DNA of 64,000 bases from Planctomycetota bacterium (lineage in GTDB: Bacteria > Planctomycetota > B15-G4): the NCBI GenBank assembly GCA_029259715.1, contig JAJDEP010000014.1, positions 259,551 to 323,550 on the forward strand, written 5' to 3'. Of the stretch, positions 13,356-57,114 are shown piece after piece (positions within the stretch are counted from its first letter, which is position 1; the number at the start of each line of letters is the position of its first letter). The notes beneath the pieces were generated by a model. That model saw only the letters and a list, made by a program, of their open reading frames with translations. It was not told the origin of the DNA and searched no databases. The position numbers were made by a program, and so were the translations under genes.

Positions 13356-13771
13356 GGCGACGATCCATCGCCTTGCAGGGCGTCCCGCACCACCTGCTCG
13401 ACGCTCTGACCCCAGGAGATCTCCAGGGTGTGACCGTCGGGATCACGCAGGAAGGCGTAGATGCCGACCTCGTCGCCCTCGGCCACGGGTTCGCCGATGA
13501 GCAGGCCCTGCGCGCGCGCGCGCTCGACGAGGGAGTCGAATTCCTCGCGACTCGCGCAGGCCACACCCAGGTGCGCCGGCGGCGCGAGCACCGTCGGCAC
13601 CACGTCCATCTCGATCAGCACTGCGACGAACGTGCGCCGGCCGTCGCCGATCCAGGCCTTGCCCTCGGCGCGCAGCACCGGCTTCAGCCCGCCGAACGCC
13701 GCATAGAAATCGATGCTCGCCGCGACATCACGGACCGGGAGCGCGATGTGGGAGAAGCCGAGGTCGGGCAT
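13352..13771 (-). CDS. VOC-family protein (glyoxalase/bleomycin-resistance fold)
   Basis: FSHIALPVRDVAASIDFY...DPDGHTLEI pattern. Its stop overlaps the PhyH start by 4 nt. Confidence 0.65.
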   Translation of the reverse strand: MPDLGFSHIALPVRDVAASIDFYAAFGGLKPVLRAEGKAWIGDGRRTFVAVLIEMDVVPTVLAPPAHLGVACASREEFDSLVERARAQGLLIGEPVAEGDEVGIYAFLRDPDGHTLEISWGQSVEQVVRDALQGDGSSP

Positions 13772-16971: not shown

Positions 16972-17757
16972 TCAGTCGTCCAGCGTGGCGATGACGGGCG
17001 CGTGGTCGGACGGTTTCTCCTGTCCGCGCTCCTCCTTGTCGACGACCACCCCCGTGCAGGCGGCGAGCGCGGGCTCGCTCATCAGGAAGTGGTCGATGCG
17101 CAGGCCGTGGTCGCGGGGGAAGCCGCGGGTGCGGAAATCCCACCAGGTGTAGTGCCCGCCGTCCTGCTCGAACTTGCGGAAGGCGTCGTGGAGGCCCGGC
17201 GCCATCATCGCAGCGAGGGCTTCGCGCTCAGGCTCGCTGCAGTGGATCTTGTCGCGCCAGCGGTCGGGGTCGTAGACGTCGCGGTCGTCGAACGTCACGT
17301 TGAAGTCGCCCGTGACCACCACCTTCTCGGTCACCGGGAACTGCCGCTCGATGAGGTCGGCCACGGCCGCCATCCAGCGCAACTTGTAGTCGTACTTCTC
17401 GTCGCCCACCTCCTTGCCGTTCACGACATAGAGGTTGAGCAGCATCACGTCGCCCACCGTGGCGCCGATGACCCGGGCCTCGTCCTTGAAGCCTTCGCCC
17501 TCGAGGCCATCGCCGACGATCCCTCGGTGGACAGACTCGATGGGCTGCTTGGCCAGGATCGCCACGCCGTTGTAGGTCTTCTGCCCGAAGGTCTCGACGT
17601 TGTAGCCCGCGCCTTCGATGTCATCGCGGGGGAACTGCTCGTCCTGGCACTTCAGCTCCTGCAGGCAGACCACGTCGGGCTGCGCGGTGGAGAGCCAGTC
17701 GAGCACCCGCGGCAGGCGCGCGCGGACGGAGTTCACGTTCCAGGTGGCGATGCGCAT
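16972..17757 (-). CDS. xth: exodeoxyribonuclease III
   Basis: MRIATWNVNS, CLQELK, DFN, SDHAP motifs. Start at the internal ATG. Confidence 0.9.
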   Translation of the reverse strand: MRIATWNVNSVRARLPRVLDWLSTAQPDVVCLQELKCQDEQFPRDDIEGAGYNVETFGQKTYNGVAILAKQPIESVHRGIVGDGLEGEGFKDEARVIGATVGDVMLLNLYVVNGKEVGDEKYDYKLRWMAAVADLIERQFPVTEKVVVTGDFNVTFDDRDVYDPDRWRDKIHCSEPEREALAAMMAPGLHDAFRKFEQDGGHYTWWDFRTRGFPRDHGLRIDHFLMSEPALAACTGVVVDKEERGQEKPSDHAPVIATLDD

Positions 17758-37080: not shown

Positions 37081-38193
37081 ATGGCACGTCAACGACTGCA
37101 GAAGTTCATGGCCGCGTGTGGGCTCGCCTCGCGACGGGCCTGCGAGGAGATCATCGCCTCGGGCCGGGTCGAGGTGGACGGCGAGATCGTCGTCACTCCC
37201 GGCACCCTGGTCGATCCCGACAGCCAGGACATCCGCTGCGACGGCTCCCGCATCAAGACCCGCAGGCTGCTCTACTACCTGCTGAACAAGCCCAAGGGCG
37301 TGATCTGCTCGGCGAAGAGCGCGCCCGACAAGCCGCGCGCCATCGACTACGTGCCCCCGGAGGCCGAGGGCGAGCGCCTGTTCACCATCGGCCGTCTCGA
37401 CGTGGCGTCCGAGGGCGCGATCATCATGACCAACGACGGCGACCTGGCCCACAAGGTCAGCCACCCGCGCTTCGAGGTCGAGAAGACCTACCGCGTCGAG
37501 GTCGAAGGCGTGCCCGAGACGAGCACCCTGGCCCGCATGCGCAAGGGCGTCTGGCTCTCCGAGGGTCGCACCGGACCCGTGCGCGTCGAGCTGCTCAAGA
37601 GCGCGCGCGACAAGTCCGTGCTCGAGATGCGCATCAAGGAGGGCCGCCAGCGCGAGGTGCGCCGCATCTGCGCGCGCTTCGGCCACGAGGTGCGGCGGCT
37701 CGTGCGCATCTCCGTCGGCCCGGTGGAATTGGGTCGGCTACCCCGCGGACACGTGCGCGTGCTGACGCCCGCCGAGATCGACGCCCTGCGGGACACCACC
37801 GACGTCGTCATCCGCCTGGGCAGCCCACGGGCCTCGGCCGCGAGCCGCACCAAGGGCGGGGCGCGGCGCCGCGGCCAGCGACCCGACGTCGCCGGCTCGC
37901 AGCGCAAGCCCGCCACCCGCAAGAAATCGACGCGCAAGAAGCCGGCTCCCAAGGCGCCGGCGTCCAAGTCGCCCGCGGGCAAGCAGCCCGCCGGTCGCAA
38001 ACCCGCGGGACGCAAGCCGGTCGGCAAAAAGCCCGCCGGCCGCAAGCCCGCAGGCCGCAAACCGGCAGGCAAGAAGCCCGCAGGCCGCAAACCGGCAGGC
38101 AAGAAGCCCGCCGGAAAACGGCCGGCCGCACGCAAGCCGGCGCCCAAGCGCTCCGGCGGCAAGCCCGGCAAGAGTCGCGGCCGCTCCCGCTAG
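37081..38193 (+). CDS. RluB/RsuA-family 23S rRNA pseudouridine synthase with S4 domain and C-terminal Lys/Pro-rich repeat tail
   Basis: S4: RLQKFMAACGLASRRACEEII. Catalytic GRLDVASEGAIIMTNDG. A KPAGR-type 15-nt coding repeat forms the tail. Confidence 0.8.
   Translation: MARQRLQKFMAACGLASRRACEEIIASGRVEVDGEIVVTPGTLVDPDSQDIRCDGSRIKTRRLLYYLLNKPKGVICSAKSAPDKPRAIDYVPPEAEGERLFTIGRLDVASEGAIIMTNDGDLAHKVSHPRFEVEKTYRVEVEGVPETSTLARMRKGVWLSEGRTGPVRVELLKSARDKSVLEMRIKEGRQREVRRICARFGHEVRRLVRISVGPVELGRLPRGHVRVLTPAEIDALRDTTDVVIRLGSPRASAASRTKGGARRRGQRPDVAGSQRKPATRKKSTRKKPAPKAPASKSPAGKQPAGRKPAGRKPVGKKPAGRKPAGRKPAGKKPAGRKPAGKKPAGKRPAARKPAPKRSGGKPGKSRGRSR
37960..38150 (+). repeat. approx. 15-bp in-frame tandem repeat encoding (KPAGR/KKPAG)n tail
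   Basis: Protein tail PAGRKPAGRKPVGKKPAGRKPAGRKPAGKKPAGRKPAGKKPAGKRPAARKPAPK. The DNA shows repeated cccgc(a/c)ggccgcaa(a/g)cc units. Coordinates are approximate. Confidence 0.7.
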
Positions 38194-40541
38194 GAGTCGT
38201 CGACGACTCCGAGCAGTCGCTTCAGCGTCGGCGTCCAGGCCTCGCCGGCATCCGGCTGGGCGATCAGGCTGCGAGCGTAGGTCCGCGCCGTCTCGTCGCC
38301 TTCGAGCAGCCCGAGCACGAGGGTGGGCATGGGCGGGAAGGTGTCGGGGCCGAAGGCACGCCGTGCCGCGTGCAGCGTTTCCCGCGCCTCGTCGTCCCGT
38401 CCCACGCGGGCATAGGCGCTGCCGAGATGCACGAGCACCGCACGGTTGCCGGGCGTCACAGCCTGGGCCCACTCGAGGATGCCCACCGCCGTGTCGTCGT
38501 GGCCGAGCATGAGCAGCACGCCGCCGTAAGGCGTCGCGAGGGCCACGTCGCCATGGTGCGCCAGGGCCGCCTCCAGCAGGCTGGCCATGCGGCCGGCCTC
38601 GTCGCGGCCTTGCAACTGGGCGGCGCGCTCGAGGATCGCGGCCCGCACGTCGGCGTGTCCGGGCGTGGCGGTCCAGGCCGCCAGCAAGCCGCCGTCCAGG
38701 TCGTCGTCGAGACCCTCGCGCTCGTGGGAATTGCGCCACAGGTCGGGGTCCTGCACGGGGTCGTCGGCGGTGACCAGCAACTCGAGGCGTGCGGCGCGAG
38801 CCCGCAGCAACGACGCCAACGACTCGGCCCGCGCGCCGAACTCCTGGGCCAACTCGCGCTGCTCACGGCCGTCGATGGGTCCCCGCTCCAAGGCCGACGG
38901 ATCGAGCGCTTGCACCATCGCCGCGAGCAGGCGCAGGTTTGCGGCGGCGACGAGACCTTCCCGGCCTCGGGCCGACAGACTCGCGAGCTCCACCCGCAGA
39001 GGCGTGCGGGTGGCGGGATCCACTCCGTCCATGCGTTGACGCAACACCCACGCGTCAGCCACGGCGAGACCGTACACCGACGCCGCGTCCGCCGGGCCGA
39101 AGGGATCGGGCCGTCCGACGAGCATCGCGTCGATGTCCTCCGCCGCAGGCAGACGCGCGCGCCCACCCACCAGCGCCAGCATGGGCTGGTCGGACAGCGG
39201 CGTCGCCACGAAGGCCCGGGACTCGGGGAACGCCTCCAGGAACGACAAGATCACTGCTTGTAGGACCGTCCACGGCATGCGGTCCAGCGGCAGCCAGACG
39301 ATGGCCAGCCCCTCGTCGGTGAGCCCGCGGCGGAGCCGCTCGAAGTGTTCGAGCGAGAGGCGCGCACCGGCGCCCTGCTTCCAGGGCGTCACCGGCGCAC
39401 ACACGATCAAGTCGAGGATCCCGAGACTCAACTCCCGGGCGTCGGCCGTACCCCGATCTCCGATGCTGTCGTGGCCGACACTCCGCAGACCCTCCCCGAG
39501 GGCGACGTCGATGTCCGCCCGCGTCTCGTCCGCCCGGAGCAGCAGGATGTCCTCTGCACCGGGGGCGAGGGCCGCCGACAGACGCCCCATACGATGAGCC
39601 AGGGCCTGGGCACGCGGCCCCGACTCCTGCTCCCAGAGTTTTCCGGGCGCCTCCGATGGACTGCCGCTCTGCTGGTCCATGACCAGGATGGCGGCACCCG
39701 CGCCCACGAGCAGCAGCAACAGAGCGGCGCCCCACGATCGGCCCCGCCAGGAGGAAGAGCCGGCGCCAACGGGACCTTCGCGCCAACCCGCCACCAGAGC
39801 CGCCGCCGTGGCGAGGGCCGTCACCAGCGCGAGTCGCCACGCGAGCATGCGCGAGGCGGTCAAGACGGTCCCGTCCGGTTCGACGAACTCGGCCAGCGCC
39901 GACGGTGTGCCCGCGCCCGCTCCGAAGGCCAGCAGGGCACCGGCGAGCAACGCGCCGATGAGTGCGGTGCCCCCCACGCCGCCCTGACCGGCCGGCGGAT
40001 CGGGCCGCTCGGACGCGAACGGCGCGAGCACCGCGCAGACCACGGCGGCCGCGGCCATGACGACGGCGATGCCGACCCGCGGTTCCATCGGCGAGGCGCA
40101 CACGTCGGGAAGGAAAAAGGCGCCGCTTGTCGCACCGAGAGCGCACGCCGCGACGGCGCCCCAGAGCGCATGCCACGGGCCGAGGCCGCTGCGTCCCCGA
40201 TGGATGACGAGGCTCACCAGCGCGAAGCCCGCGAAGATGGTCAGAAAGGACACGGGCAGGTGGGCAGACCCGTCAAAGTCCGAGAAGCTCTCCGACGCGA
40301 GGACCACCAGGGAGGAGAGCCCGGCATACCCGGCAGCCATGGAGAGTTGCCCGCGGCGCTCGCGCGAATCAAAGATGGCCGTGAAGGGGCCAATTGCACC
40401 CATGACGACGATGACGAGTCCCAGGCGCCAGCCCCCGGCGACGTCGTCTCCAGCTGCGATGCGCGGCCACCACCCGGCGAAGAGCGTCACGGAGGCGCCC
40501 AGCAGTGCGGCCGCGACGAGCGAGAGCAAGGAGGTGTTCAC
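38190..40541 (-). CDS. polytopic membrane protein with spermidine-synthase-like (SAM-MTase fold) domain and C-terminal TPR-like region
   Basis: About 8 N-terminal TM helices. Central region similar to fused membrane spermidine synthase-like proteins. C-terminal helical repeats. GTG start overlaps the folC stop (GTGA). Confidence 0.5.
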   Translation of the reverse strand: MNTSLLSLVAAALLGASVTLFAGWWPRIAAGDDVAGGWRLGLVIVVMGAIGPFTAIFDSRERRGQLSMAAGYAGLSSLVVLASESFSDFDGSAHLPVSFLTIFAGFALVSLVIHRGRSGLGPWHALWGAVAACALGATSGAFFLPDVCASPMEPRVGIAVVMAAAAVVCAVLAPFASERPDPPAGQGGVGGTALIGALLAGALLAFGAGAGTPSALAEFVEPDGTVLTASRMLAWRLALVTALATAAALVAGWREGPVGAGSSSWRGRSWGAALLLLLVGAGAAILVMDQQSGSPSEAPGKLWEQESGPRAQALAHRMGRLSAALAPGAEDILLLRADETRADIDVALGEGLRSVGHDSIGDRGTADARELSLGILDLIVCAPVTPWKQGAGARLSLEHFERLRRGLTDEGLAIVWLPLDRMPWTVLQAVILSFLEAFPESRAFVATPLSDQPMLALVGGRARLPAAEDIDAMLVGRPDPFGPADAASVYGLAVADAWVLRQRMDGVDPATRTPLRVELASLSARGREGLVAAANLRLLAAMVQALDPSALERGPIDGREQRELAQEFGARAESLASLLRARAARLELLVTADDPVQDPDLWRNSHEREGLDDDLDGGLLAAWTATPGHADVRAAILERAAQLQGRDEAGRMASLLEAALAHHGDVALATPYGGVLLMLGHDDTAVGILEWAQAVTPGNRAVLVHLGSAYARVGRDDEARETLHAARRAFGPDTFPPMPTLVLGLLEGDETARTYARSLIAQPDAGEAWTPTLKRLLGVVDDS

Positions 40542-41806
40542 GCGGGAGCGGGGCCGGAGGGAGGTTCGGTGAGGGCGGGCGCTTCGGGCAGCAACAGCCC
40601 CACCAGGTGCAGCGAGCCCGTCACCACGACGAGGGCATCGGGCCCGGCCTGACGGCGCGCGAGCGCCAGGGCCCGCTCGGGATCGGCTTCCAGCGTCGCG
40701 TCGGGGCACGCCGCCCACAAGTCGGCCGGGTCGAGACCACGCTCGCCCGGCGCCCGGGTGAGGACCATGGGGATGCCCGTGGCCGCGAGGGCCGCGACCA
40801 TGGCGCCACCGTCGCGTCCCGAGGTGGCGCCGAAGACCAGGGCGCCCACCGTGCGGCCCGCGGCTCCGAGCCGGGCCAGGTGGGCGGCCAGCAGGCCGGC
40901 CGCCGCCACGGTGTGCGCGCCGTCGAAGAGCACGCCGTCGATCTCGTGCAGGCGCCCGGCCACCCTCGAGGTCGTCAACGCGGCCTCTACGGCCTCCGAT
41001 GTCGCCGCGCCCGCGGGCAAGAGGGCCCGCTCCTCGAGGGTCGCGAGCACCGCGCGCGCGAGGGCCACGCTGCGAGCATCAAGATCATCGAGGGCATCGT
41101 CCGCCACGACCACGGCACAGCCCCCGTCGGCGGCGCACGCGTCGAGGACGGCCCGCGCCTCGTCGGGCAGCGTCGCCGACACCACCACGGGCGCCCCGGG
41201 GCGCAGGATGCCCGCCTTCTCCGTCGCGATGGCCGCCAGGGTGTCGCCCAGGATCGCCGTGTGCTCGAGGCTGATGGAGGTGATCACGGCGAGATCCGCC
41301 GGCAGGTGACGGGTGGCGTCGAGGCGCCCGCCGAGCCCGGTCTCCCACACGGCGGCCTGCACCCGCGGCGGCACGAACAGCACCCGGGCCAACGCCGTGA
41401 GGAATTCGAACCACGAGGGCGACAGCTCCCGGGCGGCGGCGGCCACCACGTCCACGGCCGCGCACAACTCGTCGTCAGCGGGAAAGGCGCCGTCGATGCG
41501 CAGGCGTTCGCGGACGTCGCGCAGATGCGGCGAGGTGTAGGTGCCCACCGACAGCCCGCACGCCCGCAACCCGAGGCCGATGCGTTCGGTGGTGCTCGTC
41601 TTGCCCTCGGACCCGGCCACGTGGACGCAGACCGGCGGGCGCTGCAAGTCCGGCAAGGCCGCCATGAGCCGCTCGGCCACCAGGGGATCGATGGCCTCGA
41701 CACCGGCGTGGAAGCGCCGGGATCGCTCCCGGTCGAGCAGGTCGTCCAGGATCGAGAGGCAGGCGGGCGGCGGTGTCACGGCGACCATCGTGGTCACTAT
41801 AATCAC
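40538..41806 (-). CDS. folC: bifunctional folylpolyglutamate synthase / dihydrofolate synthase
   Basis: VHVAGSEGKTST P-loop, YTSPHL, Mur-ligase fold. The start may be the Met at 41788. Confidence 0.8.
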   Translation of the reverse strand: MIIVTTMVAVTPPPACLSILDDLLDRERSRRFHAGVEAIDPLVAERLMAALPDLQRPPVCVHVAGSEGKTSTTERIGLGLRACGLSVGTYTSPHLRDVRERLRIDGAFPADDELCAAVDVVAAAARELSPSWFEFLTALARVLFVPPRVQAAVWETGLGGRLDATRHLPADLAVITSISLEHTAILGDTLAAIATEKAGILRPGAPVVVSATLPDEARAVLDACAADGGCAVVVADDALDDLDARSVALARAVLATLEERALLPAGAATSEAVEAALTTSRVAGRLHEIDGVLFDGAHTVAAAGLLAAHLARLGAAGRTVGALVFGATSGRDGGAMVAALAATGIPMVLTRAPGERGLDPADLWAACPDATLEADPERALALARRQAGPDALVVVTGSLHLVGLLLPEAPALTEPPSGPAPA

Positions 41807-41811
41807 GGCGA

Positions 41812-42513
41812 ATGGGACCCTTCATCGGCGTCACTTGCAGTGCCGACCCGGACGGCGAGCCGCGGGTCAATCCACGCTACGTCCGTGCGCTGCATCGCAT
41901 GGGCGCCCTGCCCGTGGCCCTGCCCTTCCTGACCGACACGGCGGCCGCCCACGCGCTCCTCGATCGCCTCCATGGCGTGCTCCTCACCGGCAGCGAGGAC
42001 ATGGACCCGAGCTTCTGGCAGGAGCAGCCGCATGCCGCGACGGTGCTCATGCACCCCCACCGCATGACCACCGAGGTGGAATTGTGCCGCGCGCTGCTCG
42101 AGCGCGACCTGCCGACCCTGGGCATCTGCGGCGGGATGCAGAACCTCAACGCCGTGGCCGGTGGCTCCATCCACCAGCACATCCCCGACCTCGGCGACGT
42201 CGGTCCCCACAGCGACCCCACCTTCGCCGCGCGGCACGCGGTGGAAGCCGTCGGCGACTCGCGCCTCGGCACGCTCCTCGGGACCGCGTTCGAGACGAAC
42301 ACCGAGCACCACCAGGCCTGCAACCGCCTCGGCGAGGGGCTCGTCGCCACCGCGTGGTGCACCGACGGCGTCATGGAGGGGCTCGAGGCGCCGGACAAGC
42401 GCTTCTTCGTCGCCGTCCAATGGCATCCCGAGCTGATGCTCGACGACCCGGCCCAGGCGGGTCTCATCGCCGCCCTGGTGGACGCCGCCCGCGACGTCCC
42501 CTGCGGCGGCTGA
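41812..42513 (+). CDS. class I glutamine amidotransferase-like peptidase C26 (gamma-glutamyl hydrolase / PuuD family)
   Basis: IGVTC, GICGGMQNLN (nucleophile Cys), WHPE. Confidence 0.75.
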   Translation: MGPFIGVTCSADPDGEPRVNPRYVRALHRMGALPVALPFLTDTAAAHALLDRLHGVLLTGSEDMDPSFWQEQPHAATVLMHPHRMTTEVELCRALLERDLPTLGICGGMQNLNAVAGGSIHQHIPDLGDVGPHSDPTFAARHAVEAVGDSRLGTLLGTAFETNTEHHQACNRLGEGLVATAWCTDGVMEGLEAPDKRFFVAVQWHPELMLDDPAQAGLIAALVDAARDVPCGG

Positions 42514-42522
42514 CCCCCGGCC

Positions 42523-43995
42523 ATGGATCGCAACCGCATCCGCAAGGCCGCCATGGGTAAGCGTGCGGCGGCCGCCCGCACCGGCGCCACCGGCCGCGAG
42601 AAGATCCGGCTGATCGCCTACGGCTTGCTCATCGTCGTCATCGGGGGCTACTTCGCGGCCCGCCCGGCCGACAAGGAGGACGCCGCCGTCGAAGCGGTGC
42701 GCCATCCGGTCTCGCCCCGCAACGCGACGCCCATCGCCGTTGTCGATGTGGCCCGCCTGACCGCAGTGCGGGACGACACGCCGACGGCCCGGGCCGTGCT
42801 CGAACCCGATGCCCGCGACCACCTCGTCTCACAGGCGGGGCGCCTGGTGTTCGGCGACATGGAACAGCTCGGCGTCCGCGCGCTCCCGCGCGCAACCGTC
42901 GTGTCCGACCCCGGGGCCCACCGCGGCGCCCCGCTCTCGGTGCTCGGACGCCTGCTCTGGTACGAGCCCGAGCTCGCCACGACGCCGCACACCTTCCGGG
43001 GCGAGATCGAGGACGAGCAGGGCGGCGCCTGGACCTTCCTCGTCGTCAACCTGCCCTGGGGCCTCGAAGTGGGCGAGGTGGTGCGGGTCAGCGGCTTCTT
43101 CTTCAAGCTGCACGACATGCTGCGACCGGACCGCACCTTCGCCACCGGGCCGCTGCTCGTCGCCGAGGAGCTGCTGCCGTCGGCCTACCGCATCGCGCCG
43201 GTCAAGGTGCTGCGGGACGATCTGTTCCTGGGCACCCGCGACCTCGACCTGTCCGACGCCAGCCGGCCGCTCGACAGCCTGGCCTACTTCGAGCTGCTCA
43301 GCTACGTGCAGAACACCGCTGCCGACGTGCTCTTCGGACCGGTGGCGACGCGCGAACCGATCTACGCCCGCGACATGCGCAGCGACCCGACCCGCTGGCG
43401 CGGCCGGGCGGTGACCGTGCGCGGCAAGGTGCTGCACACCCAGCGCTCGTCGCTCGGCCCCATGGGCGAGAACCCCCTCGGCATCCCCTGGGTCTGGGAG
43501 GTGTACCTGCTCAACAGTGTCGGCGGGCCGACCCGGGCCATCACCCTCGAGGAACCGGTGGGCATCGAGCCCGACATGACGGTCGACGTCGACGGCATCT
43601 TCTTCCGGCGCTTCGCCTACGAGAACAAGTTCAACGACCCCATCGTCTCGACCGTGATCATCGCCGGCGACGTACGCCCCTTCGTCATCCCCCCGGACGA
43701 GATCACGCCGTTCATCCAACGCTTCGTGCTCTTCGGCGGACTGGGCCTGGTGGCGCTCATCGTCCTGGCGCAACGGCGCGAGGGCCGCCAGCGCGGACGC
43801 GATCGTCACCGCTCCGCCGACCGCAAGAAGAAGCTCATCGCCCTGCCGGGGACCCTGCATCGCGCGCCGCCCGGCCGCGAAGGCGAAGGCGATGGCACGG
43901 GCACGGCACACGCGCCACCGGCCACCCCACCGCCGACGACCCCGCCGCCAACGACACCGCCCCCGGCGCCTCCCTCGCCGTCGTCTCCGCTGTGA
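42523..43995 (+). CDS. hypothetical membrane protein with N- and C-terminal TM segments and a Pro/Thr-rich tail
   Basis: High-GC3 ORF. TM IAYGLLIVVIGGYFA and FVLFGGLGLVALIVLA. Tail PPATPPPTTPPPTTPPPAPPSPSSPL. No known domain recognised. Confidence 0.55.
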   Translation: MDRNRIRKAAMGKRAAAARTGATGREKIRLIAYGLLIVVIGGYFAARPADKEDAAVEAVRHPVSPRNATPIAVVDVARLTAVRDDTPTARAVLEPDARDHLVSQAGRLVFGDMEQLGVRALPRATVVSDPGAHRGAPLSVLGRLLWYEPELATTPHTFRGEIEDEQGGAWTFLVVNLPWGLEVGEVVRVSGFFFKLHDMLRPDRTFATGPLLVAEELLPSAYRIAPVKVLRDDLFLGTRDLDLSDASRPLDSLAYFELLSYVQNTAADVLFGPVATREPIYARDMRSDPTRWRGRAVTVRGKVLHTQRSSLGPMGENPLGIPWVWEVYLLNSVGGPTRAITLEEPVGIEPDMTVDVDGIFFRRFAYENKFNDPIVSTVIIAGDVRPFVIPPDEITPFIQRFVLFGGLGLVALIVLAQRREGRQRGRDRHRSADRKKKLIALPGTLHRAPPGREGEGDGTGTAHAPPATPPPTTPPPTTPPPAPPSPSSPL

Positions 43996-45038
43996 GCCGC
44001 TCGCACGTCGAGGTGCAGACCGGCCTGCTGGCCCGACGCGCTGCCCAACTGGCGACCCGCGCCGCCCTGGTGCTCACGGACGAGAACGTCGCGGCGCTCC
44101 TGCCCGCCGCGCTCGCCGAGCGCCCCCGTCACGTCCTGGTGCCCGGCGAAGCGAGCAAGTCGTGGGACGAGCTCGGGCGGCTGCTGCGGGCCCTCGATGC
44201 CGGCGGCGTCGACCGCGACGGACACCTGGTCGCCGTGGGCGGCGGTGTGGTCACCGACCTCGGAGGACTGGCCGCCTCGCTGCATCGCCGCGGCATCTCC
44301 TGGTCGGCCGTGCCGACGTCGCTCGTCGGTCAGGTCGACGCGGCCCTGGGCGGCAAGACCGCCGTGAACCTCGGCGGCGGCAAGAACACCGTGGGCAGCT
44401 TCCACCCGCCCGCCGACGTGGTCATCGACCCGGGCGTCCTCGCCACCCTGCCGCGTCGACACCTGTGCGCCGGCATGGCCGAGGTGCTCAAGACGGCCCT
44501 GATCTCCGGGCCGGAGGCGCTCGATGCGGCGGCCGCCCTGGAGCCCGACGACTTCGCCGCCGCCACCCCCGCGGCCGTCGCCGTCATCGAGGCCTGCGTC
44601 GCGACCAAGTCCGCCCTCGTCGAGCAGGATCTCCACGACCGCGGTCCTCGCCGGGCCCTCAACCTGGGCCACACCTTCGGTCACGCCTTCGAGGCCCTGG
44701 CCCTGGCCGGCGACCCCGCGGACAGCCTGTTGCACGGCGAGGCGGTCGCCCTGGGCCTGCTGTGCGCCGCCCGGCTGGCGGCCGGTCTCCCCGACGCCGA
44801 TCGCGAGCTGCCCGCTCGCCTGACCGGGACGCTGAGACGCTGGGGGCTGCCGACCTCCTCGCCCCTGACCGCCGAGCCGCTGCTGGCCGAGATGGGCCGC
44901 GACAAGAAGCGCGCCGGGGGAGCCCTGCGCCTGGTCCTGGCGCCGCGGCCCGGCCGGGTGGAGATCGAGGACGCGGTGCCGGCCGACCGGATCCGGGCGG
45001 GCCTCGAAGCGGTGAGGAAATCGGCCTCAACTTCGTGA
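43992..45038 (+). CDS. aroB: 3-dehydroquinate synthase
   Basis: GGGVVTDLGG, NLGHTFGHAFE, and the DHQS fold. GTG start overlaps the upstream stop (GTGA). Confidence 0.8.
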   Translation: MSRSHVEVQTGLLARRAAQLATRAALVLTDENVAALLPAALAERPRHVLVPGEASKSWDELGRLLRALDAGGVDRDGHLVAVGGGVVTDLGGLAASLHRRGISWSAVPTSLVGQVDAALGGKTAVNLGGGKNTVGSFHPPADVVIDPGVLATLPRRHLCAGMAEVLKTALISGPEALDAAAALEPDDFAAATPAAVAVIEACVATKSALVEQDLHDRGPRRALNLGHTFGHAFEALALAGDPADSLLHGEAVALGLLCAARLAAGLPDADRELPARLTGTLRRWGLPTSSPLTAEPLLAEMGRDKKRAGGALRLVLAPRPGRVEIEDAVPADRIRAGLEAVRKSASTS

Positions 45039-45072
45039 GCGAAACGGGCCGACGAGGAGCTTCGGAGGCTCC

Positions 45073-45741
45073 ATGGACTCGACCCCTGCAATGCCCGCCG
45101 CCCTTGCTGCCGCCTGCAGCCAAGGCCATCCCCTCGAACTCTGGGTCCTCGTGGACGGCGAGATCGTCCAATGCCCGGGGTTGTTCCTGCAACCGGATGA
45201 GCAGGGTCGCCCCCAGCTCACGGCGGCGCTGCCCGACGACTTCGTCGGCGTGATCCGCAACGGCTCGGCCGTGCGCGGCTTCTTCGCCGACCATGCCGGG
45301 ACGATCCACACCTTCCTCACCAGCGTGCATCGCTGGGTGCCGTTCGACGACAACCCCCGCTCGGCGCGCATCCACCTCGACGCGCCGGTCATCGTCGCGC
45401 CCTGCCAGCGTCGCCGCAGTCGCCGCAAGGGCGCCGGCAACCTGCCCGTGCAGCTCTCGGTCACGATCCGCGGGAACCGCGAGTCGGTCCAGGGTCGACT
45501 CGTCGACGCCTCGACCAACGGCATCGGCGTGCGCCTCGTGCGCACGGCCAGCAACTGGTTCGGCAAGGGCACGCGCGTCAACGTCGAGGTCGACATGCCC
45601 GACCGCGCCGAGCCCCTGTCCTTCGACGCCATCGTCAGCCGCGCCAACACCGAGGCGTTGCATTACCTCTACGGACTGCGCGCCGCGGATGCCCGCGAGA
45701 GCCGCAAGGTCCTGCGCGACATCCTCGACCAGGTGATCTAG
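45073..45741 (+). CDS. PilZ domain-containing protein (c-di-GMP receptor-like)
   Basis: RRRSRRK (RxxxR) followed by DASTNGIGVRL (DxSxxG). Confidence 0.65.
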   Translation: MDSTPAMPAALAAACSQGHPLELWVLVDGEIVQCPGLFLQPDEQGRPQLTAALPDDFVGVIRNGSAVRGFFADHAGTIHTFLTSVHRWVPFDDNPRSARIHLDAPVIVAPCQRRRSRRKGAGNLPVQLSVTIRGNRESVQGRLVDASTNGIGVRLVRTASNWFGKGTRVNVEVDMPDRAEPLSFDAIVSRANTEALHYLYGLRAADARESRKVLRDILDQVI

Positions 45742-56079: not shown

Positions 56080-57114
56080 GTGCCCGCCCTCGGCTCTGTG
56101 CTGGTCATCCGGCTCTCGTCGCTGGGCGACGTCTTGTTCGCCGTGCCTGCGGTGCAGGCGCTGCAGCGCAGCGGCTTGGCTGAGCGAGTGACCTGGCTGG
56201 TGGAGGACCGCGCCGCCGGTCTGCTGGCCCTCGCCTCCGGACTCTCCGAAGTGATGGTCTACCCGCGCAGCCGTCCGGCGCTCTGGCTCGCCCACGCTGC
56301 CGCCTTGAGGCGACGCCGGGACGACCTGGTGATCGACCTGCAAGGCAACCTCAAGAGCCGCGCCCAGCTCATGCTCCTGCGGGCGCCCCGCAAGCTGGGG
56401 TTCGACCGGCCCATCGCCCGCGAGGGCAGCCACCGGGCGCTGACCGAACGCTTCGTGCCCACCTACGCGTCGCGCCACCGGGTCGCCTCCCACCGGGCGC
56501 TCATCGGGACCCTGGCGCCCTTGCCGCCGGGCCCCGCACCCCGCCCGGACCTCCACATCGCGCCGGCCGCCGCCGAACGGGCGAGGACCTGGCTCGACGA
56601 CCAGGCCGGCGACGGCCCCCTCATCGTCCTGCACCCGGGCACCAGCGCCTTCGGGGCGCTCAAGCGCTGGGCCCCCGCACAGTTCGGCGCTCTCGGCGAT
56701 CGACTCACGCAGGAACACGACGCTCGCCTGCTGATCACCGCCGGGCCCGCGGAAGCTGAACTCGCGCAACAGGTCCAAGCCAACCTGGCGACCCGCGCGC
56801 TGCGCCCGCCGCCGGGGACCCTGCCGGACCTGGCGGCCCTGCTCGCCGCGGCCGACCTGGTCATCGCGGCCGACTCCTTCCCGCTGCACCTGGCCAATGC
56901 CCTGGGCACCCCCGTGGTCGGCCTCTACGGCCCGAAGTCCCCGAACGTCACCGGGCCCTACTGGGATCGCTCCGAGGTGGTCACGGCGGGCGTCGACTGC
57001 AGCCCCTGCACGCTGCGGCGGTGCTCCGACCGCATCTGCATGGAGCGCCTCGACGTCGAGTCCGTCCAAGGCGCGGCCGCTCGGCTGCTGGCCACTCCGC
57101 GGACGCACTCGTGA
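56080..57114 (+). CDS. glycosyltransferase family 9 (LPS heptosyltransferase-like)
   Basis: VLVIRLSSLGDVLFAVPA, LIVLHPGTS, GPKSP. GTG start; GTG at 56098 is an alternative. Confidence 0.75.
   Translation: MPALGSVLVIRLSSLGDVLFAVPAVQALQRSGLAERVTWLVEDRAAGLLALASGLSEVMVYPRSRPALWLAHAAALRRRRDDLVIDLQGNLKSRAQLMLLRAPRKLGFDRPIAREGSHRALTERFVPTYASRHRVASHRALIGTLAPLPPGPAPRPDLHIAPAAAERARTWLDDQAGDGPLIVLHPGTSAFGALKRWAPAQFGALGDRLTQEHDARLLITAGPAEAELAQQVQANLATRALRPPPGTLPDLAALLAAADLVIAADSFPLHLANALGTPVVGLYGPKSPNVTGPYWDRSEVVTAGVDCSPCTLRRCSDRICMERLDVESVQGAAARLLATPRTHS

Follow-up and report, generated by a model that had tools for sequence, protein, structure and literature searches.

How two genes that diverge from almost the same point are transcribed and translated is the question raised by the folC-C26 junction in a 64,000-nucleotide stretch of Planctomycetota bacterium DNA (assembly GCA_029259715.1, contig JAJDEP010000014.1, positions 259,551 to 323,550), which is analysed here as a whole and referred to as the window. 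The minus strand carries folC, for a FolC-family dihydrofolate/folylpolyglutamate synthase, and the plus strand carries a gene for a peptidase-C26 / class-I glutamine-amidotransferase-like gamma-glutamyl hydrolase. An earlier note on this DNA placed the two start codons about 5 bp apart, took this to mean that either each promoter lies inside the partner gene or one start is mis-assigned, and proposed opposed control of folate polyglutamylation or an overlapping divergent promoter. Comparison of orthologous loci points to the promoter: the 23-bp spacer between the two conserved start codons is, with a probability of about 0.68, a minimal bidirectional core promoter in which overlapping -10 hexamers would give rise to two leaderless operon mRNAs.

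Conserved start codons and the folC-C26 spacer

A total of 13 orthologous loci were gathered, 10 via the C26 protein and 3 independently via FolC, and the junction was alignable in 12 of them (alignment A3). The guanine-cytosine (GC) content of the orthologous loci was 62.5-77%, and their C26 proteins were 47-62% identical to the C26 protein of the window, where GC was about 71% overall and 64-81% in 100-nt windows near the junction. Nearly all source-named close relatives of C26 and FolC were labelled Planctomycetota bacterium metagenome-assembled genomes, and below this clade identity fell sharply, from 48% to 38% in FolC and from 47% to 45% in C26.

The longest open reading frame (ORF) of folC (40538..41806, minus strand) begins at GTG 41806, and the public gene call for FolC (P0121, 422 aa) starts at the same codon. 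An equivalent GTG was present in the window only and in no other aligned locus, and 41806 was ruled out as the folC start for that reason. The sole start codon common to all 12 aligned loci in both position and frame was the equivalent of ATG 41788, which was ATG in 10 loci and GTG in two, and which opens a peptide of the form M-x-x-(V/A)-T-(P/S). With this revised start, folC spans 40538..41788 and encodes 416 aa, and residue 18 of the product aligns with residue 20 of E. coli FolC. Another GTG, within the motif CACTATAAT of the spacer, was in frame with folC in 9 of the 12 loci and out of frame in the remaining 3, and was likewise rejected as the conserved start. The folC starts chosen by gene callers differed among the orthologous loci, falling at the conserved site, at the GTG within the promoter motif, or at an internal codon, so database N-termini of the FolC family are unreliable.

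On the other side of the junction, the C26 gene (41812..42513, plus strand) encodes 233 aa. Its start cannot shift upstream because an in-frame TAA stands at 41800-41802, and the N-terminus M-x-P-F-I-G-V-T-C, common to all C26 orthologues, begins exactly at 41812. The in-frame stop and the uniform N-termini together fix the start where the earlier note had put it, and the head-to-head arrangement of the two genes was confirmed. The gap of 5 bp between the starts did not hold, since it rested on the longest-ORF choice of GTG 41806, and of the two explanations that had been offered for the near contact, a mis-assigned start was the one borne out, with FolC moving to 41788 on comparative evidence. 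The conserved starts leave a spacer of 23 bp, CGTGGTCACTATAATCACGGCGA (41789..41811), as the entire non-coding stretch between both start codons. Among the 12 aligned loci, the spacer measured 23 bp in 8, 24 bp in 1, and 25 bp in 3; the first bases of the two start codons were accordingly 24 nt apart, except for 25 nt in one locus and 26 nt in three.

A candidate promoter shared by two putatively leaderless operons

The spacer has the order CGTGGT-CACTATAAT-CACGGCGA. Its central 9-mer (41795..41803, plus strand), the putative shared promoter core, formed nine consecutive invariant columns across the 12 loci, while the spacer bases on either side of it varied freely, and it was found once per orthologous locus, at the folC-C26 junction each time. 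In three loci its reading frame does not match that of folC, which shows that the motif is non-coding and that its CAC/GTG is no conserved start codon.

Two hexamers resembling the -10 element are contained in the 9-mer, one on each strand. Towards C26, TATAAT (41798..41803, plus strand) is a perfect consensus hexamer that stands 8 nt before ATG 41812; the gap is 8 nt in 11 of the 12 loci and 9 nt in the remaining one. No other TATAAT occurs on either strand of the 64-kb window (0.16 occurrences expected). Towards folC, TATAGT (41796..41801, minus strand) agrees with the consensus at 5 of 6 positions and stands 7 nt before ATG 41788, a gap that holds in nine loci and widens to 9 nt in the other three. 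Both hexamers have A at position 2 and T at position 6, and they overlap by 4 bp (the shared TATA). The overlap and the asymmetry, perfect consensus towards C26 and five of six towards folC, were kept in all 12 loci. The gaps from hexamer to start codon are thus constrained on both sides and match the spacing of leaderless operons, in which the Pribnow box lies 6-8 nt from the gene start (PMC6028130).

A purine-rich Shine-Dalgarno sequence was absent from both spacer arms in every aligned locus. The upstream region of pilZ, the gene at the end of the rightward operon, served for comparison (45028-45072 in the window and its equivalents in loci L081, L082, L084-L086, L167, and L168): GGAGG-like runs (GGAGG, GAGGAGA, AAGGGG, and similar) were found 5-12 nt upstream of pilZ in 8/8 loci, without invariant bases. 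The lineage therefore does use Shine-Dalgarno sequences, on leadered or internal genes, and ordinary intergenic DNA is not conserved at such divergence.

Only one orthologous locus, L172 (GCA_029259745.1; 4709-5001), had folC and C26 291 bp apart, still as divergent neighbours. A variant motif, CACTATCAT, stands 8 nt from the folC ATG in this locus, and its minus-strand hexamer, GATAGT, keeps the -11 A and the -7 T. That the motif stayed with folC after C26 had been displaced supports a folC-side function. The region upstream of C26 in L172 differs from that of the other loci and holds an AGAGAG run, and pilZ is inverted there.

The anatomy of the spacer, the invariance of its core, the constrained spacing, the absence of Shine-Dalgarno sequences, and the conserved start positions were observed directly; from this anatomy we infer that transcription starts at the spacer in both directions and that both messages are translated without a leader. 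A housekeeping sigma-70-type RNA polymerase would engage the AT-rich island ACTATAAT in either orientation. In the rightward orientation, TATAAT would act as the -10 element and transcription would start at the A of the C26 ATG or 1-2 nt before it (41810-41812), giving a leaderless mRNA that covers C26, a 490-aa protein, aroB, and pilZ. In the leftward orientation, TATAGT (41801 down to 41796) would act as the -10 element and transcription would start from the A of the folC ATG or a neighbouring base (41788-41789), giving a leaderless mRNA that covers folC and a 783-aa membrane/TPR gene. The leaders of both messages would be 0-2 nt in length. Start sites at the start codons would lie 24 nt apart, or 23 nt if C26 has a 1-nt leader, and the opening codons of the partner gene would have to accommodate any -35 or upstream contacts. 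The overlapping divergent architecture suggested in the earlier note is in this way retained and sharpened, as both predicted -10 elements lie in the 23-bp spacer with a 4-bp overlap and only the -35/upstream zones would be inside the partner genes.

The -11 adenines of the two hexamers belong to neighbouring base pairs, 41799 (top strand) and 41800 (bottom strand). Because these adenines adjoin and the hexamers share TATA, two open complexes could not coexist, and the spacer would accept one polymerase at a time. In E. coli, none of the five bidirectional promoters tested showed competition between polymerases at basal levels of transcription (PMC12825309); since basal transcription at such promoters is too low for competition to matter, co-expression rather than antagonism of the two operons would be expected.

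In many bacteria, divergent transcription is driven by near-symmetrical shared -10 elements; the start sites are mostly 18 bp apart, with 10 and 23 bp as further common distances, as described by Warman, Grainger and colleagues (PMC12825309; PMC10268837). Opposite-strand start sites 7-25 bp apart serve to define such promoters. The spacer resembles these promoters in its overlapping opposite-strand -10 hexamers, in a predicted divergent initiation about 23-24 bp apart that is near the reported 23-bp class, in the very short DNA that suffices, and in the exclusion of one polymerase by the binding of the other. It differs in that both products are predicted to be leaderless mRNAs of protein-coding operons, with start codons 24 nt apart, and in that the hexamers overlap by 4 bp, whereas the commonest 18-bp class has a 5-bp crossed arrangement. 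The element described here is also invariant across a deep clade, has a Planctomycetota host, and is known from sequence alone. The leaderless promoters of Actinobacteria and Deinococcus-Thermus (GeneMarkS-2 group C, PMC6028130; D. deserti, PMC4007540) are alike in the Pribnow box 6-8 nt from the start, in the lack of a Shine-Dalgarno sequence, and in the ATG or GTG predicted at the 5' end of the mRNA. The present case differs from them in its phylum, in its gaps of 7-9 nt (for folC, 8 nt in L172), and in the sharing of one -10 core by two putatively leaderless genes. Planctomycetes have few Shine-Dalgarno sequences, and their upstream A/U-type nucleotide biases have been attributed to leaderless mRNA and/or to protein S1 (PMC5397173); in contrast to the Actinobacteria and Deinococcus-Thermus systems, leaderless use in Planctomycetota has been derived from such sequence statistics only. 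In the literature on Planctomycetes transcription starts, no study mentioning leaderless mRNAs was found.

Several results weigh against the bidirectional promoter. A scan for consensus sigma-70 promoters (-35 plus -10) over 41300-42300 gave no match, and no recognisable -35 was seen on either side. Gaps of 8-9 nt are near the upper limit for start-site selection by sigma-70, which leaves room for short leaders of 1-2 nt. The folC start is GTG rather than ATG in two loci, and GTG is usually less efficient than ATG in leaderless translation. Other TANNNT-N6-8-ATG candidates in the window were few and about the number expected by chance, which is only a weak sign that leaderless organisation is common.

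The first alternative to be weighed is that TATAAT serves the C26 operon only, and that a promoter further upstream, inside or beyond C26, yields a leadered folC mRNA, which would run antisense to the 5' end of C26. It agrees with the finding that the plus-strand hexamer alone is a perfect consensus. However, the CAC upstream of TATAAT, from which the minus-strand hexamer takes its -7 T, is also invariant, the folC start remains 7-9 nt from the motif in 13 loci, and the motif of L172 stays with folC despite the displacement of C26. A leadered folC message would also lack a Shine-Dalgarno sequence, although the lineage does employ such sequences at other sites. A promoter of this kind, facing one way only, is considered unlikely.

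An improbable explanation is that the 9-mer acts mainly as an operator for a sequence-specific regulator of both operons, with the actual promoters elsewhere. The invariance of all nine positions goes beyond the strict need of a -10 element, and some 18-20 nt further left a second patch, TGTC(A/G)C, is conserved at the nucleotide level and imposes the rare codon ACA on folC. Against this, the motif matches the universal -10 consensus exactly and at the right distance from two start codons, the 9-mer is not palindromic and no repeat structure is conserved across the loci, separate promoters would not fit into the 23-bp spacer, and none was found by the consensus scan of the flanking 1 kb. An A/U-rich, Shine-Dalgarno-independent, S1-dependent ribosome landing site in two leadered mRNAs would agree with the AU-richness of the element on both strands and with the S1 attribution made for Planctomycetes (PMC5397173), but it is highly improbable, as A/U-richness would tolerate A-to-T swaps and every base is invariant, spelling TATAAT, and as the neighbouring pilZ uses ordinary Shine-Dalgarno-like sequences.

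The TGTC(A/G)C patch was recorded as an observation in its own right. The codon for Thr5 of FolC was the rare ACA in 11 of the 12 loci, and ACA makes up only 2.3% of the Thr codons in the genes of the window (16/698). The patch is located at 41774-41779 in the window (folC codons 4-5) and at the same position in L081, L082, L084, L085, L087, L145, L167, L168, L170, and L171. This suggests nucleotide-level selection on G(T/C)GACA in folC, which reads TGTC(A/G)C on the plus strand. Counted from TATAAT, the patch lies some 18-20 nt to the left, in what would be the -35 zone of the C26 promoter. Possible causes are a promoter contact upstream, a half-site for a regulator, and an effect on codons at the 5' end. 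GTGTCA/TGTCAC was tried as a -35 element and was not accepted, the spacer to the -10 being 18-19 nt, and 20-21 nt in the loci with longer spacers.

If the bidirectional promoter is real, the locus would combine two known mechanisms, a shared -10 bidirectional promoter and leaderless mRNAs, as a well-conserved further example of them. Backed by comparative evidence, it would offer a candidate both for the housekeeping -10 consensus and for leaderless expression of genes in Planctomycetota, where promoter architecture is almost uncharacterised. It would also be an unusually clean natural case in which the entire regulatory region of two operons amounts to 23 bp, one that could serve Planctomycetota genetic tools as a compact bidirectional promoter and that would lend itself well to tests of how polymerases compete at overlapping -10 elements. 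The correction of the folC start from 41806 in the public gene call to 41788 is a further outcome.

Gene products and a possible control of folate tails

The identities of both genes were upheld. The folC product scored 229.5 bits against TIGR01499 (dihydrofolate synthase/folylpolyglutamate synthase, DHFS/FPGS), above the family cutoff of 162.65, and contained both the Mur_ligase_M (PF08245) and Mur_ligase_C (PF02875) domains. On this sequence evidence the product belongs to the FolC family, and ATP-dependent addition of glutamate to dihydropteroate or folates is predicted. Its closest solved structures were L. casei FPGS and E. coli FolC, with which it shares the Mur-ligase architecture and, given the start at 41788, an N-terminal length within 2 residues of that of E. 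coli FolC. It differs from them in its score against the equivalog model of the E. coli bifunctional DHFS/FPGS, NF008101, which was 141.6 bits and below the cutoff of 360, and in its P-loop, GSEGKTS (of the GxxGK(T/S) type), which aligns with GTNGKGS of L. casei FPGS.

The plus-strand protein scored 178.1 bits against PF07722 (gathering cutoff 20.5), which places it in peptidase family C26, and its Cys-His-Glu triad is intact, with C106, H205, and E207 invariant in alignments of 29 and 42 sequences. The closest solved structures were 3fij (Lin1909), 7d4r (P. aeruginosa SpuA), and 6vtv (E. coli PuuD), which have the same fold family and triad. A profile of the clade's C26 proteins aligned over the full length with all three, at 174 bits to Lin1909, 161 bits to SpuA, and 144 bits to PuuD. 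Human gamma-glutamyl hydrolase (GGH; 1l9x), which belongs to the same MEROPS family C26 with the class-I amidotransferase fold and removes the tails added by FolC/FPGS, gave only 23.4 bits over profile positions 13-67, a partial match to the first ~55 profile residues, and full-length similarity to characterised eukaryotic GGH was not found. The C26 protein therefore groups by sequence with Lin1909, SpuA, and PuuD and not with the eukaryotic folate gamma-glutamyl hydrolase. It is nevertheless not a PuuD equivalog, as the gamma-glutamyl-GABA (gamma-aminobutyric acid) hydrolase model NF008471 gave 74.9 bits against a cutoff of 266, and its gene context is without polyamine-utilisation genes. Members of the C26 family hydrolyse widely different gamma-glutamyl compounds, glutathione included (bioRxiv 10.1101/2023.02.02.526638), so the substrate cannot be read from the sequence.

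Two other assignments were ruled out. A PabA/TrpG-type amidotransferase feeding folate synthesis was set aside on 24.8 bits against NF005849 (cutoff 308), compared with 178 bits against PF07722. A MurT/GatD-like pair of ligase and amidotransferase was set aside as well, the ligase passing the folC model and the C26 protein matching only PF07722 and PF00117 in Pfam.

The remaining proposal of the earlier note is functional and could be added to the promoter model; in its present form, C26 would remove the gamma-glutamyl tails that FolC adds, and a mutually exclusive promoter would balance the two activities. Gamma-glutamyl bonds are acted on by both enzymes, the many substrate types of the C26 family include folate gamma-glutamyl hydrolases (bioRxiv 10.1101/2023.02.02.526638), and the folC-C26 pairing was kept in 13/13 clade loci. 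The earlier note had named a FolC start at 41788 or further in, together with a loss of synteny and a C26 enzyme specific for polyamine-derived substrates, as findings that would speak against the link; the start is indeed at 41788, but the synteny is conserved throughout the clade.

Other results argue against such a coupling. An entire block of about 10 kb, with rluB, the membrane/TPR gene, folC, C26, the 490-aa gene, aroB, and pilZ, is syntenic, so the adjacency is not specific to the pair. Profile searches of genome and metagenome contigs with the C26 alignments listed almost only distant homologues, which then served as the negative control for adjacency to folC: among the matches listed, 159 loci with more distant C26 homologues (30-46% identity, from many phyla including other Planctomycetota) had a folC-like gene in their flanks in 0/159 cases. 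The sequence relationship of C26 is with Lin1909, SpuA, and PuuD (144-174 bits) rather than with human GGH (23 bits, partial). In a comparative-genomics survey of the folate genes of bacteria, gamma-glutamyl hydrolase is named only in a cited reference on plant enzymes, and no bacterial one is reported to cluster with folC (PMC1971073), and no described bacterial folC-C26 pairing was found in the literature. An overlapping promoter alone would make the pair hard to separate, without any shared function, and the five E. coli promoters mentioned above showed no polymerase competition at basal levels (PMC12825309).

Functional coupling of the two enzymes is accordingly regarded as unlikely. Opposed control of folate polyglutamylation found no independent support in the block-wide synteny, in the distant loci among the matches listed, or in the nearest relatives of C26, and stands as a reasonable but unsupported guess that is speculative and rather unlikely. 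It is less probable still that C26 is a bacterial folylpolyglutamate hydrolase and that the asymmetrical shared promoter sets the ratio, or acts as a toggle, between addition and removal of folate tails; if this were true, a bacterial folate-tail cycle would be encoded in 23 bp of regulatory DNA. New folate biology is not revealed by the locus alone.

Neighbouring genes and further observations

The gene downstream of folC (38190..40541, minus strand) encodes a 783-aa membrane/TPR protein with weak TPR matches only; no informative Pfam or NCBIfam match and no PDB relative were obtained for it. It holds the same position in all orthologous loci, and its GTG start overlaps the TGA stop of folC as GTGA (40538-40541). 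Owing to this stop/start overlap, the 783-aa gene is probably co-transcribed and translationally coupled with folC.

On the rightward side, C26 is followed by the gene for the 490-aa protein (42523-43995), for which Pfam and PDB searches gave nothing informative, and then by two genes identified with Pfam/NCBIfam, aroB for 3-dehydroquinate synthase (43992-45038) and a gene for a PilZ-domain protein (45073-45741), all on the plus strand. The distance from C26 to the ATG of the 490-aa gene is 9 nt, the 490-aa gene and aroB overlap by 4 nt, and 34 nt separate aroB from pilZ. This gene order is kept in the orthologous loci. The tight packing on both sides of the spacer, with the GTGA overlap to the left and the 9-nt gap to the right, fits two operons.

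Rfam and tRNA scans of the whole 64-kb window gave no matches. Other TANNNT hexamers 6-8 nt upstream of ORF starts in the window were seen at 13771(-), as TACGAT-N6-ATG, at 17757(-), as TATCCT-N8-ATG, and at 56080(+) and 55986(-); these starts could belong to further leaderless genes, in a number near that expected by chance.

Tandem repeats were observed at two sites in the block. The 3' part of the RluB-like pseudouridine synthase gene (37972-38114) holds a 15/30/45-nt tandem repeat that encodes a basic tail of the (K/R)KPAG type, KPAGRKPAGRKPVGKKPAGRKPAGRKPAGKK..., and the 3' end of the 490-aa gene (43913-43965) holds a 15-nt tandem repeat coding for a Pro/Thr-rich tail (PPATPPPTTPPPTTPPPAPP), immediately ahead of the 4 nt that overlap aroB.

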